NCBI GenBank assembly: GCA_902769705.1
Contig: CACXPX010000014.1
Coordinates: 464 to 64,463, forward strand
Length of the DNA stretch: 64,000 nt
Origin: an uncultured Prevotellaceae bacterium
GTDB taxonomy: Bacteria; Bacteroidota; Bacteroidia; Bacteroidales; Bacteroidaceae
Direction of reading: 5' to 3'
Shown here: positions 1,577 to 21,342 of the stretch, piece by piece
Numbering within the stretch: the stretch's first letter is position 1
Layout: each line of letters opens with the position of its first letter
Position numbers and translations under genes: made by a program
Notes under the pieces: generated by a model
Seen by the model: only the letters and a program-made list of their open reading frames with translations
The model's database searches: none
Told to the model about the DNA's origin: nothing

Positions 1577-3160
1577 TTAATTATATGTTCCTGCGATGTC
1601 TTCCATCACGGCCTCAATGGCTTTCGACGTATCGTCGTCGATTTTGCCGCTTCCCAGGGTCTCGATGATTTCGGGATGCGTGGTGCGCACTTTCTCGAGG
1701 AAGGCGTCCTGACACTCGCGAACCTTGTCGATGGGCACATTGCGCATGAGGCCGTGCACTCCGCAATAGAGGATGGCCACCTGCTCGCCTACGGGCATGG
1801 GGTTGTATTGAGGCTGGATGAGCAGCTGGTTGTTCTTGCGGCCTCGATCGAGTGTCATAGCTGTGACGGCGTCCATGTCGCTGGAGAACTTGGAGAATGC
1901 CTCGAGCTCACGATACTGCGCCTGGTCGATTTTCAGCGTTCCAGCCACTTTCTTCATCGACTTGATTTGTGCGGAGCCACCCACACGCGACACTGAGATA
2001 CCGACGTTGATGGCGGGTCGGAATCCTTGGTTGAAGAGGTCGCTCTCGAGGTAGATCTGTCCGTCGGTGATGGAGATGACATTCGTGGGGATGTAGGCCG
2101 ACACGTCGCCTGCCTGTGTCTCGATGATGGGCAGGGCTGTGAGCGAGCCACCTCCGCGCACATGTCCCTTCATGCACTCGGGCAGGTCGTTCATCTGTTC
2201 GGCCACTTCCTGCTGCTCGTTGATCTTGGCTGCACGCTCGAGCAGACGGGAGTGCAGATAGAACACGTCGCCAGGATAGGCTTCGCGGCCTGAAGGACGG
2301 CGCAGAATGAGCGACACCTCACGATAGGCCACAGCCTGCTTGGAAAGGTCGTCGTAGACCACGAGGGCGGCAAATCCACGGTCGCGGAAATATTCGCCGA
2401 TGGCTGCTCCTGCGAATGGTGCATAGTATTGCATGGCGGCTGGATCGGCAGCTGTTGCAGAGACGATGATGGTGTATGGCAGGGCACCATGCTCCTTCAG
2501 GTTCTGCACGAGAGCGGCAACTGTGGACGCTTTTTGGCCGATGGCCACATAGATACAATAGACAGGCTTTCCTGCCTCATAGAAACTCTTCTGGTTGATG
2601 ATGGTGTCAACGGCGATGGCAGTCTTACCCGTCTGACGGTCGCCGATAATGAGCTCACGCTGGCCGCGTCCGATAGGAATCATCGAGTCGACAGCTTTCA
2701 ATCCCGTCTGCAGGGGCTCTTTCACCGGCTGGCGATAGATCACGCCCGGGGCCTTGCGGTCGAGTGGCATCTCGAAAGCACCTGTGAGGTCGATGTCGCC
2801 CTTGCCGTCGATGGCTTGTCCGAGAGGGTTGATGACACGTCCCAGCATGTTGTCGTTCACTCGGATTGACGCAATGCGGTGGGTGCGCTTCACAACTTGC
2901 CCTTCCTTGATACCAGACGTGGAACCCAGCAGCACACAACCCACGTTGTCTTCCTCCAGGTTCATCACAATAGCCATCGTGCCGTTTTCGAACTCAAGCA
3001 ACTCGTTGGCCTCAGCATTGCGCAAACCATAGATGCGGGCCACACCGTCGCTCACCTGGAGCACAGTTCCCACCTCGTCGAACTTGGCGCTGTCGCTGAT
3101 GCCTTGCAATTGCTGGAGCAACACTGCTGACACTTCGCTTGGTTTTATTTTGTCTGACAT
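1577..3160 (-). CDS. atpA: ATP synthase F1 alpha subunit
   Basis: Walker [47 protein letters not shown]. Confidence 0.99.
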
Positions 3161-3240: not shown

Positions 3241-3278
3241 CTCCCCTCCCTACGGGGGAGGGGTCGGGGGAGAGGCTT
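3241..3278. repeat. REP-like palindromic element, intergenic copy
   Basis: CCCCTCCC/GGGAGGGG stem; 37/38 identical to the reverse complement of 18421-18458. Confidence 0.85.
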
Positions 3279-3302: not shown

Positions 3303-3839
3303 TTATCTCTTTAGTTCCGTGAGAATGGAATTGAGTTTCGACTTGACACTCGCATCCATGCGATACGTATCGTACTCGAGGATGAAACCACCGATGATAT
3401 CAGGGTCTACCTCGGTTTGAAACTCAACGGTTCCCTGAGTCTTCGTCTCCACCATCTGCTTCATCTTCGCCTCGGTTTCGGGCGAAACGGCAGTGGCAGT
3501 GATAAGGCGTCCACGGGTGATGTTCTTCTGTTGACGGTAGAGCGTAACAAACGAATTGGCCATCAATTGCAAGGTGCTTTCCCTATCCTCGTCGAGCACC
3601 AGAAGCAGAAAGCGCTTGGTAAGCTCCGAGGGATTGCCTCCGCAAGCTGTCTCCAGCAGGCTCTGCTTTTGTTCTTTCACGAGCATGGGATTGTCAATGG
3701 TGAAGCGCAATTGCGGCACTTCGATGTAAGATGCCGCCAATGTTTGCATATCGGCATACACCTGCGACTCGATGTGCATGGCAACAGCACTTTTCAAAAG
3801 TGCCCTCGCGTATCTTACTGAAACCACACCTAAATCCAT
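3303..3839 (-). CDS. atpH: ATP synthase F1 delta subunit
   Basis: SVRYARALL start, VDPDIIGGFIL...DASVKSKL end, operon position. Confidence 0.95.
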   Translation of the reverse strand: MDLGVVSVRYARALLKSAVAMHIESQVYADMQTLAASYIEVPQLRFTIDNPMLVKEQKQSLLETACGGNPSELTKRFLLLVLDEDRESTLQLMANSFVTLYRQQKNITRGRLITATAVSPETEAKMKQMVETKTQGTVEFQTEVDPDIIGGFILEYDTYRMDASVKSKLNSILTELKR

Positions 3840-16780: not shown

Positions 16781-17721
16781 GTTTCATCATCACCGCCTAC
16801 AACATTCAGCCCTCCATGCTGAAAGCGTGCATAGAGAGCGTGCTGGCCCTGAACCTCGACAACGAGCTGCGGGAAATCTTGCTCATCGACGATGGCAGCC
16901 ACAGCAGTCCCCTGCCCCATCTCGGTTCCCTGGCCGATGAGATTGTCTACATCCGCCAGCAAAACCAAGGCATCAGCGAGGCACGAAACACAGGACTAAG
17001 GGCGGCAACAGGACAATACATACAGTTCATCGATGGCGACGACCATCTGATGCCTGCCGCATACAAGCATTGCCTGGACATCGTGGGAAAACATTCGCCC
17101 GATGCCATCGCCTTCGAACTGACCACCAACGACAACGACTCACCATCCGACATCACAGCCACAGGGCCCACCGAAGGCTGCCAATATCTGCTGAAGAACA
17201 ATGTGCATGGCTCCATTTGCACCTACCTCTTCAAGAAGTCGGCAGCAGCCAACCTCACCTTCACCCGAGGCATCACCTATGGAGAAGATGAGGAGTTCAC
17301 CCCACAGCTGATTCTGCGGGCCGACACCCTCTACACCACCGACGCCAAGGCCTACTTCTATCGCCAGCACCCCTCGTCGGCCACACACCAGAAAGATGAG
17401 GAGAACATCAGGAAACGACTCGACGACAACCTGACAGTCATCCTGCATCTCAACAAAATCTCCGACACCCTGCCCACGGCTGAACGCGAAGCCCTGAAAC
17501 GCCGTGTTGCACAACTCACCATGGACTTCATCTACAACGCCATCACCATGACGCGAAACCCCGAGAAAGTGGAGCAATACATCGACCAACTCTATGCCGA
17601 AGGACTCTTCCCGTTGCCACAACGCGACTACACCAAGAAGTACAAATACTTCCGCATGATGACACAAACCAAAACAGGCAGAAAAATCCTCTGCCACACA
17701 CTTCCACGACTGAAAGGATGA
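16768..17721 (+). CDS. GT2 glycosyltransferase
   Basis: ISFIITAYN, LIDDGS, NQGISEARN, FIDGDD, GEDEEF. Confidence 0.93.
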   Translation: MEKISFIITAYNIQPSMLKACIESVLALNLDNELREILLIDDGSHSSPLPHLGSLADEIVYIRQQNQGISEARNTGLRAATGQYIQFIDGDDHLMPAAYKHCLDIVGKHSPDAIAFELTTNDNDSPSDITATGPTEGCQYLLKNNVHGSICTYLFKKSAAANLTFTRGITYGEDEEFTPQLILRADTLYTTDAKAYFYRQHPSSATHQKDEENIRKRLDDNLTVILHLNKISDTLPTAEREALKRRVAQLTMDFIYNAITMTRNPEKVEQYIDQLYAEGLFPLPQRDYTKKYKYFRMMTQTKTGRKILCHTLPRLKG

Positions 17722-17753
17722 AAAATGAAAAATGAAAAATGAAAGATGAACCA
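17719..17753. repeat. Heptamer tandem repeat (TGAAAAA)n starting at the GT2 stop codon
   Basis: tgaaaaa x3, tgaaaga, tgaacca. Confidence 0.85.
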
Positions 17754-17827
17754 ATGGTCGCTGGCCGCAGGAAACCAACGGTCGCTGTCGCGTAGCGGGG
17801 AAAGTATAAGCAAAGATTAATTGTCAA

Positions 17828-19024
17828 ATGAAAATATTGTTATTAGGCGAATACAGCAACGTGCATTGGACGCTCGCCGAAGGGCTCCGCAAGTTGGGAC
17901 ACCAGGTCACCGTGCTCTCCAATGGCGACTTCTGGAAAGACTACCCGCGCGACATCAACCTCGTGCGCACACCCGGCAAATGGGGTGGCATCCGCTACAT
18001 GGCTCGCCTCTACAGCCTTCTGCCCCGCCTGCGAGGCTACGATGTTGTGCAACTCATCAACCCCATGTTCCTCGAGATCAAGGCTGAGCGCATCTTCCCC
18101 ATCTACCGCTACCTGCGCCGCCACAACGGCAAGATGGTGATGGGAGGATTCGGCATGGACTACTATTGGGTGTCCACCTGCTGCAACGAAAAGCCTCTGC
18201 GATATAGCGACTTCAACATCGGCGACAAACTGCGCACCGACGAGGATGCACTACGTGAACGCCGCGATTGGCTGGGCACCAAGAAGGAAGAACTCAACCG
18301 CTTCATAGCCGAAGATTGCGATGCCATCGTCACAGGACTCTACGAATACCAGGTGTGCTACCAGCCCCACTTCCCTGAGAAAACCACGTTTATTCCGTAT
18401 CCGATAAAACTAGAGGAGAAAAGCCTCTCCCCCGCCCCCTCCCCCGTAGGGAGGGGAGATTCGAGCAACGAGGATTCTCAAGCTGCCAGCAAATCTCATT
18501 CCACACTCCACATTCCACATTCCACAACTTCCCCCTCGGGGGATAAGAGGGGGGCCCTTTCCCTCTTCATCGGCATCAACCGCTCTCGCTCTGTATACAA
18601 GGGTACCGACATCATGCTGCGAGCAGCACAAGCCATCAAAGCGCAATATCCCGACCGTGTGGACCTCCAGATAGCCGAGAGTGTTCCTTTCGCCCAATAC
18701 CAGCAGATGCTCAATGGAGCCGATGCCATCCTCGACCAGCTCTACAGCTACACGCCCTCCATGAACCCCCTGATGGCCATGTCGAAGGGCATCATCTGCA
18801 TCGGAGGTGGCGAGCCTGAGAACTACGAGATTCTGGGCGAGACCGAGCTGCGTCCCATCATCAACGTGCAACCCACCTACGAGAGTGTCTACCATGAACT
18901 CGAACAACTCGTCCTTCACCCCGAACGCATCCCTGAACTCAAACGACAAAGCATCGAGTACATCCGCCGCCACCACGAATACCTGAAAGTGGCGCGGCAA
19001 TACGAAAAAGTGTATAAGAGGTAA
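17828..19024 (+). CDS. GT-B fold (GT4-like) glycosyltransferase carrying an in-frame repeat-derived insertion
   Basis: MKILLLGEYSNVH, KGTDIM, DQLYSYTPSMNPLMAM; low-complexity insert KSLSPAPSPVGRG...SPSGDKRGA. Confidence 0.9.
   Translation: MKILLLGEYSNVHWTLAEGLRKLGHQVTVLSNGDFWKDYPRDINLVRTPGKWGGIRYMARLYSLLPRLRGYDVVQLINPMFLEIKAERIFPIYRYLRRHNGKMVMGGFGMDYYWVSTCCNEKPLRYSDFNIGDKLRTDEDALRERRDWLGTKKEELNRFIAEDCDAIVTGLYEYQVCYQPHFPEKTTFIPYPIKLEEKSLSPAPSPVGRGDSSNEDSQAASKSHSTLHIPHSTTSPSGDKRGALSLFIGINRSRSVYKGTDIMLRAAQAIKAQYPDRVDLQIAESVPFAQYQQMLNGADAILDQLYSYTPSMNPLMAMSKGIICIGGGEPENYEILGETELRPIINVQPTYESVYHELEQLVLHPERIPELKRQSIEYIRRHHEYLKVARQYEKVYKR
18421..18557. repeat. Composite repeat inside the CDS: REP copy, (CATTCCA)x4, second GC hairpin
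   Basis: 18421-18458 matches 3241-3278; heptamers 18497-18524; CCCCTC/GAGGGG hairpin within 18529-18557. Confidence 0.85.
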
Positions 19025-19032
19025 GAGGGGCT

Positions 19033-20241
19033 CTACGGCCACGAGTCGCTAAGCTTCTCGAACAACTCGGGCACATACACAGGATTGACATTCCTCATCC
19101 CCACTCTTACCATAATCAGGTTTTTGTACGGATTCACATAAAGCACCTGAGCACAGATGCCCACGGCATAGTAGCCGGGAGTCTCAGACTTGGCGCCCCC
19201 ATAGTTGCTGGAGTTATACCAATTGAAGTGATAGCCTTTGTTGCTCGAGTCGTATTCCGTTGACCGTCGTATCCAGTCCTCGCTCACAATGCGTTTCCCG
19301 TTCCACATGCCACGATTCAAATACAGGCGGCCTATCTTGGCAAGGTCCTTCATCGTGAGGGTCATTCCCCCGAAGGTGTGAGCCACCCCATGCCTGCGGC
19401 TGTCGACATTAATGAGTGCCGGCGACTCCATCTGCAGAGGCTTCCACACCTTCTCGCTCAGGTAATCGGCAAAGCGCTTGTTCGAAGCCCTTTCTATCAC
19501 CACGCCCAAAATCTGCGAAGTCATACTCTCGTAGCGATACTCCTTTCCCGGCTCACAACGGAATTTCAGCCCCCGTATCTGCCTCATCACGTTATGCCCG
19601 TAGTTCAGCTTGGCAATGGCCACTAGCCTGTTGAGACTCTTCAGACTCAGGTAATACGTGTCGTCGAAATCCAGTCCGCTTTGCATGTCCAGCAAATGCC
19701 GTATGGTGAGTTTCTGCCACATGGGGTCTTTCTTTTTCAGCTCCGGCAGATATTCCGTCACAGCATCATCAATGCTCCGTATATAGCCATCGTCGACAGC
19801 TATTCCACACATCAGAGAAGTGATGGACTTGGAAACGGAGAACACGGTCGCCAAGCGGTCTGAAGAGACATCGCCCCAATATTTCTCATAGACGATGCTG
19901 TCGTTTTCGATGATCAGCACGCCCTGGTTCCTGCAGGTTTTCAACGCCTCCGCGAGGGTGATGTTCCTGCAATAATCGCCCTGAGTGTAGAAGTGCAAAG
20001 TGTCAATCCAATCAGCCTTCTGCGTGGCCACAGGAAACTGGAACGTCTCGTTGCCGTTGGCAATGGCCACATGAGGGTGGCGCTCGAAACTATAGATGCC
20101 CGGTCCGTTCTTGCCGTCAGCCATATACCCCCTCACCACGGCACACGACACCGCGACCATGCTGAAAATCCCGATGGCAAGCACCCGAATGACACTCCTC
20201 ATTCCCTCGCTCACCTTGCTCTTGTTGATAGTTCTGTCCAT
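19033..20241 (-). CDS. Serine hydrolase, beta-lactamase/class C-like family, probable lipoprotein
   Basis: FSVSKS (SxxK), LTIRHLLDMQSG, YESMT, LAKIGRLYLNRG; lipobox VAVSC. Confidence 0.88.
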   Translation of the reverse strand: MDRTINKSKVSEGMRSVIRVLAIGIFSMVAVSCAVVRGYMADGKNGPGIYSFERHPHVAIANGNETFQFPVATQKADWIDTLHFYTQGDYCRNITLAEALKTCRNQGVLIIENDSIVYEKYWGDVSSDRLATVFSVSKSITSLMCGIAVDDGYIRSIDDAVTEYLPELKKKDPMWQKLTIRHLLDMQSGLDFDDTYYLSLKSLNRLVAIAKLNYGHNVMRQIRGLKFRCEPGKEYRYESMTSQILGVVIERASNKRFADYLSEKVWKPLQMESPALINVDSRRHGVAHTFGGMTLTMKDLAKIGRLYLNRGMWNGKRIVSEDWIRRSTEYDSSNKGYHFNWYNSSNYGGAKSETPGYYAVGICAQVLYVNPYKNLIMVRVGMRNVNPVYVPELFEKLSDSWP

Positions 20242-20442: not shown

Positions 20443-21342
20443 CTACTCATTATTACCCAAGAAAGAAATACGCTTCAGGGGTAGCATATTCTTGTCTTCG
20501 TCAGACATCTTGTCGTAATACACCTGCCACATCTCGATGAACTCATCGCCATCAATCAGGCGGATGAATTTGTCACCACTCGATGCTGCATGTTTGGCAT
20601 CTGCCGAATAAGTGCCACTGGTGACAAACAATGCGATATCACCAGCCTTCAGCACACCAGACAAAGCACGAACCTCCGCTGCTCCAATAGCCGTGTCTGG
20701 CTTATGTTTCACCTGAACCTTGATACGCGGAGTTTGAGCACCCAACGGGTCTAAATAAGCAATAATATCTACACCACCATCCTTGCCTTTGGGAGCAACA
20801 AAAGGTGTGTGATATTTCATAGCTCTCAGCAAAGCTGCCACCATGTCTTGAAATTCGTATGGACTTTTCGAAACAATGAAGCTCTTGATGCCTTCGCGTG
20901 CATCAGACTCTAATAGGTCAAGATTCATTGAGTTATCCTTCTCGGCTGTCTCATCGTTAGGTTCCTTTCCAGGAGTCTCCTCCTTGGGGTTCAGCAACCG
21001 CCATTCATTGTAGGCAGCGTTGGCAATGTTCATCACCTCTTCAGGGGATTTCTTCAAAGCCTTTTCTCCTTCAGGTGTAATATACCAAGTGCCTTTTTTC
21101 TTAATGATGAACCCTGCCTTCTGATAATCAATGGAATAGAACTGGAAACTATTTGTCCAACGGATATACTGCATCTTTCCAGCCTTCTCGCGTTCCCAAT
21201 CTGTGAGTTTCACGTTTTCATTTACGAAGGGGTATAGTTCTTTGGCAGGCATACTGCCACCGCGACGACTCATTTCCGTCATCACCGCATACAACGTTTT
21301 CGTTGCACAGGCTTTTGTTCTGCTGAATTGTTCCTTTGCCAT
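20443..21342 (-). CDS. mrr: Mrr-like restriction endonuclease (N-terminal wHTH plus Mrr catalytic domain)
   Basis: SPYEFQDMVAALL, DGGVDIIAY, VQVKH, VTSGTYS, IRLIDG. Confidence 0.88.
   Translation of the reverse strand: MAKEQFSRTKACATKTLYAVMTEMSRRGGSMPAKELYPFVNENVKLTDWEREKAGKMQYIRWTNSFQFYSIDYQKAGFIIKKKGTWYITPEGEKALKKSPEEVMNIANAAYNEWRLLNPKEETPGKEPNDETAEKDNSMNLDLLESDAREGIKSFIVSKSPYEFQDMVAALLRAMKYHTPFVAPKGKDGGVDIIAYLDPLGAQTPRIKVQVKHKPDTAIGAAEVRALSGVLKAGDIALFVTSGTYSADAKHAASSGDKFIRLIDGDEFIEMWQVYYDKMSDEDKNMLPLKRISFLGNNE

Follow-up and report, generated by a model that had tools for sequence, protein, structure and literature searches.

How do repeats that lie mostly between genes come to be read as protein inside a conserved enzyme, and does the cell make use of the resulting peptide, of the copy number of the repeats, or of neither? 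This question is raised by a glycosyltransferase (GT) gene in a 64,000-nucleotide (nt) stretch of DNA from an uncultured Prevotellaceae bacterium, here called the window (contig C14, positions 464-64463). The genome examined comprises 3.6 Mb in 72 contigs, with 49% GC and 99.4% completeness, and near-identical GT proteins in the databases are named Prevotella and come from ruminant and gut samples. The segment at issue is probably a composite of lineage-specific dispersed repeats, lodged at the junction of the two GT domains and tolerated there as selfish DNA, rather than a domesticated peptide. The gene, the modules of the insert and the intergenic counterpart of one of them are located as follows:

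17828..19024, + strand: coding sequence of the predicted GT-B (GT4-like) glycosyltransferase, an open reading frame (ORF) of 398 amino acids (aa), host of the insert
18412..18420, + strand: remnant of an AGAGAGG heptamer array (CTAGAGGAG), expanded in P0126, L022 and L029, where it reaches about 4 units
18421..18458, + strand: 38-nt GC-rich hairpin repeat (left arm, resembling a repetitive extragenic palindrome, REP), read as SLSPAPSPVGRGD
18459..18496, + strand: spacer of 38 nt, read as SSNEDSQAASKS, unique in the genome
18497..18526, + strand: heptamer array CATTCCA x4.3, read as HSTLHIPHST (Tandem Repeats Finder, TRF; 91% matches)
18532..18558, + strand: second GC hairpin, CCCCCTCGGGGG + ATAAGAGGGGGGCCC (right arm), read as SPSGDKRGA
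3241..3278, - strand: counterpart of the 38-nt hairpin in the atpH-atpA intergenic region

Composition of the insert and its dispersed repeat families

The GT frame stays open across the whole insert and takes in three repeat modules, namely the 38-nt GC hairpin, the CATTCCA array and the second GC hairpin. Codons 198-243 translate to KSLSPAPSPVGRGDSSNEDSQAASKSHSTLHIPHSTTSPSGDKRGA, identical to the peptide given in an earlier, sequence-only reading of the window; the hairpin copy, the four heptamers and the second hairpin that it had listed are likewise all present where it had placed them. At 37 of 38 positions (97%) the left arm matches the intergenic copy in reverse complement, the latter being flanked by atpH (OSCP, 3303-3839) and atpA (1577-3160), and the 20-nt core of the hairpin, CCCTCCCCCGTAGGGAGGGG, occurs twice in the window as against no occurrence in 100 shuffles. 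The left arm has an 8-bp stem (CCCCTCCC/GGGAGGGG) and the loop CCGTA, with a GTAG situated internally, at the junction of the loop and the 3' arm. For the spacer, BLAST against the genome returned no second copy, merely 13-nt chance matches; its 3' end, AAATCTC, is similar to TATTCTC or ATATCTC, the conserved inner flank at other CATTCCA arrays, and its segment GAGGATTCT is common to the L030 allele described below. The heptamer units follow one another as CATTCCA, CACTCCA, CATTCCA and CATTCCA, with no more than two identical units adjacent, and within the right arm CCCCCTCGGGGG itself occupies 18532-18543, with ATAAGAGGGGGG directly after it. The tryptic peptides predicted from the linker are SLSPAPSPVGR, GDSSNEDSQAASK and SHSTLHIPHSTTSPSGDK.

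That the insert is made of repeats otherwise found mostly in intergenic DNA, as had been claimed, is borne out by further genomic copies of all three modules. The hairpin core is present in 15 copies at two mismatches or fewer, several of them inside ORFs, the CATTCCA unit class forms 17 arrays, and the right-arm 18-mer CGGGGGATAAGAGGGGGG recurs identically at 3 other loci and near-identically at 3 more. Additionally, SPxxGGxxEGA-type peptides are found in about a dozen other long ORFs. The triple CATTCCA unit has 26 matches in this genome as against one in 40 relatives, and the hairpin core is abundant only in this and one other genome of the same genus. From this distribution the repeat families appear to be young; since the CATTCCA unit is all but absent from the other genomes of the 41 tested, the insert itself would be recent.

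Elsewhere in the genome, CATTCCA arrays have a conserved inner flank (GCTATTCTC-ATTCCAC...) and are often arranged as inverted pairs, which represent hairpin or MITE-like structures (miniature inverted-repeat transposable elements) with the heptamer arrays as stems. These pairs, of the form (TGGAATG)n-GAGAATAGC ... GCTATTCTC-(ATTCCAC)n, enclose 50-450 nt (C35:60045-60204, C38:5744-5852, C29:9440-9958 and C8:95614-95690), and on contig C38 one CATTCCA array is followed by a GC hairpin of the insert's kind. At the scale of the genome, TRF reports 528 arrays of period 7 and 288 of period 22, compared with 119 of period 6 and 334 of period 8, and periods 7 and 22 are strongly over-represented relative to their neighbours. 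Heptamer arrays belong to many unit families, the commonest being AATTGAC with 38 arrays, and their modal length is 30-32 nt (about 4.3-4.4 units) inside and outside ORFs alike. Of the heptamer arrays with a TRF score of at least 40, 62 of 281 lie within long open frames, defined as at least 60 open codons to either side; the corresponding figure is 1 of 287 for 22-nt arrays, and 65% for random 31-nt segments. A preference of in-ORF arrays for 3n+1 copies was considered as a signature of the reading frame and was rejected, about four copies being the mode both in and out of ORFs.

The same repeats are read in frame in at least five other enzymes of this genome that are confirmed by Pfam. The search of the proteome for the linker peptides, which the sequence-only reading had recommended, retrieved the first of them:

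GH89 (glycoside hydrolase family 89) NAGLU, alpha-N-acetylglucosaminidase, contig C23: LSPIPSPVGRGD...SPTGGGLEEA, located after the TIM barrel (118-443) and ahead of the C-terminal domain (494-787)
RluA synthase: cassette immediately ahead of the catalytic domain
GltD-like oxidoreductase: in-frame repeat copy
Cardiolipin synthase: repeat between its PLD domains
SF1 helicase: in-frame repeat copy
ABC-F ATPase, GH92 and GH3 enzymes, primase-like genes: in-frame repeats, additional to the five Pfam-confirmed cases and assigned from the translated ORFs only

The 38-nt hairpin element has one and the same reading frame in the GT and the GH89 enzyme. At window positions 18446-18460 the hairpin translates to GRGDS, known as the classic motif for integrin binding, and the GH89 copy reads GRGDL; this GRGD is taken as a coincidence of GGGAGGGGAGAT, a related allele of the GT, P0016, having VERGE instead. 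As a separate observation, a primase-like ORF of 810 aa (C31:13045-15480) contains three in-frame heptamer arrays (AATTGAC, AAATGAA and TCAAAGT) together with a reversed 38-nt hairpin (ETPLPTGEGQGE), and its paralog on contig C39 has other array copy numbers, the hairpin repeat being coding there as well.

Linker length, predicted fold and allelic series

Pfam matches on the GT coding sequence (Glyco_transf_4 and Glyco_trans_1_2) are weak, with scores under the gathering thresholds. An AlphaFold2 model built from a 76-sequence alignment (predicted template modelling score, pTM, 0.84) resembles in Foldseek the GT4 enzymes of GT-B fold PimA, MshA, BshA, PglA and WaaG, with a probability of 1.00 and E values down to 6.5e-12. 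According to this model, which displays two Rossmann-like domains and a C-terminal helix crossing back, the enzyme is assigned to the GT-B, GT4-like class; conservation of the family extends to at least 596 Prevotellaceae species genomes. The predicted local distance difference test (pLDDT) falls below 50 only at residues 200-240, which sit past the last elements of the N-domain and directly before strand 244-250, the one that opens the C-terminal Rossmann domain and is accompanied by the (F)IGINRxRSxYKG motif. This low-confidence stretch at the inter-domain junction agrees with the location between the two GT-B domains proposed from the sequence.

Among 80 species-level Prevotellaceae loci, 79 of which are measurable, the linker was measured from PxPI to the LFIGIN strand and has 15-19 aa in 61 of the 79 species, as against 52 aa in the window GT. 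In 15 genomes of the same genus, residues 1-195 and about 243-397 of the window protein match within a single open frame and are, in most, 14-16 residues apart. The alignment of orthologs, proposed as a check on the claimed insert, thus supports it, and the insert would be read as some 33-37 extra disordered residues. Long linkers of other species are made of other units, such as AAATTCA x4 plus a GC hairpin (L083), AAATTCA (L107) or CCTCAGC x4 (L048), and from their composition they appear to have arisen independently. Three loci of the family (L041, L061 and L088) come from bins labelled Lachnospiraceae or Akkermansia muciniphila and are probably mis-binned contigs.

Within the species, proteins that are 85-100% identical overall have their differences almost confined to the linker, and alleles with at least 95% nt-identical flanks exhibit four linker lengths, all in frame. 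Flank identities are given for the N- and C-terminal sides at the nt level relative to the window:

Window-type allele: linker of 156-159 nt
L021: flanks N 97.6% / C 96.6%, linker of 54 nt
L029: flanks N 96% / C 96%, linker of 210 nt
L030: flanks N 95% / C 95%, linker of 99 nt
L022, L031 and L023: more distant flanks, linkers of 87, 102 and 117 nt

All these lengths are divisible by 3, and hairpin or heptamer modules make up every linker. L021 carries one CATTCCA unit and the right hairpin, without the left hairpin, and has 99 nt (33 codons) fewer than the window allele, a difference that by eye is compatible with an insertion or with deletions. The L029 linker consists of (AGAGAGG)x4, about 120 nt and (CCTCTCT)x4, while a module of the right-arm type closes the linker in L021, L024, L030 and L031. 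In L030 and L031 the two arms, with their loops, are reverse complements of one another, whereas those of the window allele share only a common architecture. Across 18 full-length cassette alleles, 10 of 47 positions in the insert are polymorphic as against 12 of 339 elsewhere (odds ratio 7.4, p = 6e-5), a rate about six-fold that of the remaining protein, and by this comparison no part of the gene appears to vary more within the species than the linker. The allelic series shows non-coding repeats turning into protein sequence within one species: hairpin and 7-nt modules rewrite an inter-domain tether, and identity in the catalytic domains remains at 95-100%. A contig from the European Nucleotide Archive (L115, allele P0142) deserves separate mention: its bases 1-260 contain the 3' end of the GT (…YEKVYER stop), then an (AGAGAGG) array, a P0009-type linker and a second C-terminal domain, an arrangement that reflects either duplication or recombination via the purine repeat, which is similar to AAGAGGTAAGAGG at the end of the gene itself, or else a chimeric assembly.

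The sequence-only reading had proposed that intergenic repeats are being domesticated as a protein linker. The first half of this statement stands, in that repeats of intergenic type are read in frame as linker, and the second is not supported. A repeat peptide that has been recruited, whether as a longer tether tuning domain closure, as a partner-binding motif or through the encoded GRGD, would agree with a frame that is open in every full-length allele, with a junction expanded independently in several species and with the identical frame of the left arm in the GT and the GH89 enzyme. Against it, L021 lacks the insert at 97-98% identity, other alleles have unrelated modules at the same place, GRGD is not retained in related alleles such as P0016, and the enzymes of the 61 species mentioned above function with their short linkers. 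Taken together with the raised polymorphism and the predicted disorder of the segment, the alleles without the insert argue against a domesticated peptide, which we consider very unlikely.

The same alleles bear on whether the hairpins act in cis at the RNA or DNA level, as a co-translational folding pause, an mRNA-stability element or an internal terminator, the peptide being incidental. The segment does contain three local GC stems, and intergenic copies lie 3' of genes such as atpH, a position in which an action on RNA has been attributed to REP-type hairpins (PMC3733652). However, the RNA fold of 18405-18575 is no more stable than that of shuffled sequences (z = -1.56), a promoter and terminator scan found no site on the coding strand inside the insert, and the hairpins are replaced by purine-rich heptamers or lost in other alleles, which leaves a cis role extremely unlikely. 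A scan of 17600-19100 against Rfam, with E values up to 1, returned no family.

On the reading of tolerated selfish DNA, which we favour, the composite consists of a GC-hairpin left arm, a spacer, a 7-nt tandem array and a GC-hairpin right arm, and such repeats would lodge in the poorly constrained junction of the two Rossmann domains of a conserved GT4-type enzyme. The insert may be tolerated because the two domains need just a flexible tether, and selection would then maintain the open frame and not the peptide sequence, and the added residues would be close to neutral. The repeats may keep turning over as copies are inserted, deleted or exchanged for others and as heptamers are gained or lost, with frameshifted null alleles as an occasional by-product. 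The lineage-specific unit families, the conserved flanks of the arrays and the inverted arm pairs suggest that the modules spread by MITE-like mobility or by gene conversion among copies.

Heptamer number and the possibility of a switch

Simple-sequence contingency loci are known from surface-glycan glycosyltransferases, including Neisseria lgt, Haemophilus lic2A/lgtC and the poly-G loci of Campylobacter, and their tracts are much longer than the present one and perfect. The CATTCCA x4.3 tract shares with them a unit that is not divisible by 3 and its location inside the ORF of a glycosyltransferase, here one belonging to a polysaccharide locus, and it could accordingly be viewed as a slipped-strand on/off switch of a surface-glycan enzyme. 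A natural one-unit frameshift allele exists as well. L113 (protein P0132) has 3 heptamers, exactly one fewer than the 4-unit alleles, through a clean 7-nt deletion relative to L024 and the window; the protein is truncated at 280 aa, the C-domain is intact in the shifted frame, and the other 42 differences from L024 are all substitutions. L113 appears to be a genuine loss of one unit in an independent lineage, for which the k=141 assembly is hard to blame. Intact alleles, in turn, differ only by frame-neutral steps, with 1 versus 4 CATTCCA units in L021 and the window, and about 1 versus 4 units of the AGAGAGG array in the window and P0126, the latter having 7 additional aa. A pattern scan of metagenome contigs from the Joint Genome Institute for cassette alleles with variable heptamer number gave 0 matches. 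In a protein search with the N-terminal half, aimed at truncated alleles, clustering at 90% identity hides such alleles, and the short representatives are artefacts of contig ends or adapters.

Several observations stand against such a switch. The tract is mid-gene and imperfect, with 4 units, one variant among them and at most two identical units side by side, and neither this length nor its 91% matches amount to the extent and uniformity associated with frequent slippage. There is almost no spread in copy number: 4 units fit 37 of the 38 cassette-bearing contigs, and all 19 distinct full-length cassette proteins read SHSTxHxPHST. The other two disrupted alleles (P0147 with P0148, and P0149) are interrupted at the linker by non-heptamer indels and have other linker types. 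Furthermore, heptamer arrays throughout the genome have their mode at this same size, about 4.3 copies (30-32 nt), and similar arrays occur in housekeeping genes that have no reason to switch. With a tract this short, imperfect, ordinary in size and nearly constant in copy number, a dedicated switch is unlikely, although not outlandish. The related notion that the tract is a genuine, slow mutational switch, providing ordinary genes with a heritable and reversible on/off state as in L113, is also quite unlikely; were it true, the module system would generate contingency loci and disordered linkers across the genus and would spread without a recognised transposase. In either case, the loss of one heptamer that knocks out a glycan gene provides a natural example on which the question of junk or switch is directly testable.

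The repeats thus turn the junction into a mutational hot spot, and null alleles are present. The following points weigh against the favoured explanation of tolerated selfish DNA. First, no mobilising enzyme was found: the Y1 transposase family (IS200/IS605-type and REP-associated tyrosine transposases, RAYT; PF01797) has no match in the 99.4%-complete genome, whereas control genomes are positive, and no target-site duplication was recognised by eye at the GT junction, the parent element having been sought among Y1 transposases. Since neither of these was found, the description of the repeats as selfish mobile elements is drawn from their distribution. Second, the same junction is occupied repeatedly in many lineages, so a longer or variable tether could be useful. 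Third, L113 and the disrupted alleles P0147/P0148 and P0149 would also fit a selected on/off role.

Comparison with known repeat systems and the host locus

The closest precedent, and a fair one as the sequence-only reading had suggested, is that of the Rickettsia palindromic elements (RPEs; Ogata et al. 2000), dispersed palindromes that are found between genes and also inside them, in frame, in unrelated enzymes (PMC10969869). The two systems have in common a repeat family that is both intergenic and located in ORFs, a conserved frame in which the repeat is read as additional peptide, orthologs without the insert and a linker site compatible with the fold. They differ in several respects. RPEs belong to another phylum, so that the likeness is one of functional class and a sequence relation is not expected. 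They are single units of 100-150 bp, whereas the modules described here are of about 30-40 nt and can be combined. Finally, the present cassette includes 7-nt tandem arrays, undergoes strong within-species turnover at one site and draws on some 15 copies per hairpin family.

REP elements and REPINs, which are associated with RAYT transposases and include intragenic examples, were also considered (PMC3733652). Like them, the left-arm hairpin is an imperfect GC palindrome of 20-40 nt, mostly extragenic, often located just 3' of genes and sometimes intragenic, and it contains a GTAG (PMC3733652). Unlike them, its GTAG is not terminal, its copy number is in the tens (15 core copies) and not in the hundreds, short of the high copy number typical of REPs, and the genome is devoid of a Y1/RAYT transposase; for this last reason the hairpin was rejected as a REP/RAYT element.

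Regarding the heptamers, heptameric long simple-sequence repeats and the short tandemly repeated repetitive (STRR) arrays of cyanobacteria are alike in that 7-nt arrays are over-represented, comprise many unit families, are mainly intergenic and vary between close relatives (reviewed in PMC4692102). The arrays of this genome differ in that about a fifth are located in ORFs, with a mode of about 4.4 units, conserved flanks and frequent inverted pairs. Tandem repeats of Borgs create intrinsically disordered regions, and their in-ORF units are all divisible by three (PMC9879509). Here too fast-evolving nucleotide repeats add disordered segments without breaking frames, but the 7-nt unit is frame-neutral only in steps of 3 units. 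Within the Bacteroidales, the BrickBuilt MITE of Porphyromonas gingivalis has a 22-nt minisatellite (PMC4596501). It likewise constitutes a modular repeat system, and the 288 period-22 arrays of the present genome recall it, although here 22-nt arrays are practically excluded from ORFs and none is found in the GT insert. A full-text literature search found no description of such inserts for Prevotellaceae. Prevotella being a dominant genus of rumen and gut, annotation pipelines, ortholog alignments and strain typing will face such inserts in many genes.

Finally, the GT is a member of a small polysaccharide locus, together with a Wzx-like flippase and three GT2 genes. Its surroundings are the following:

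Upstream of the GT: Wzx-type flippase gene (divergent) and three GT2 genes, one on the - strand and two on the + strand
17722..17827, + strand: 106-nt intergenic insertion separating the upstream GT2 gene from the GT
Downstream of the GT, opposite strand: beta-lactamase-fold gene
20443-21342, - strand: Mrr-type restriction endonuclease gene (Mrr_N + Mrr_cat), adjoining the locus

The 106-nt insertion contains an ATGAAAA x4.7 array (17718-17750), whose heptamer is the same as the native start of the GT, ATGAAAA, followed by a ACCAAYGGTCGCTG module; the ACCAACGGTCGCTG module of this insertion is also found 3' of a heptamer array on contig C4. In alleles L022, L030 and L031 the stop of the upstream GT2 gene overlaps the start of the GT (ATGA), whereas in the window allele the insertion separates the two genes, abolishing their overlap and generating several tiny upstream ORFs.

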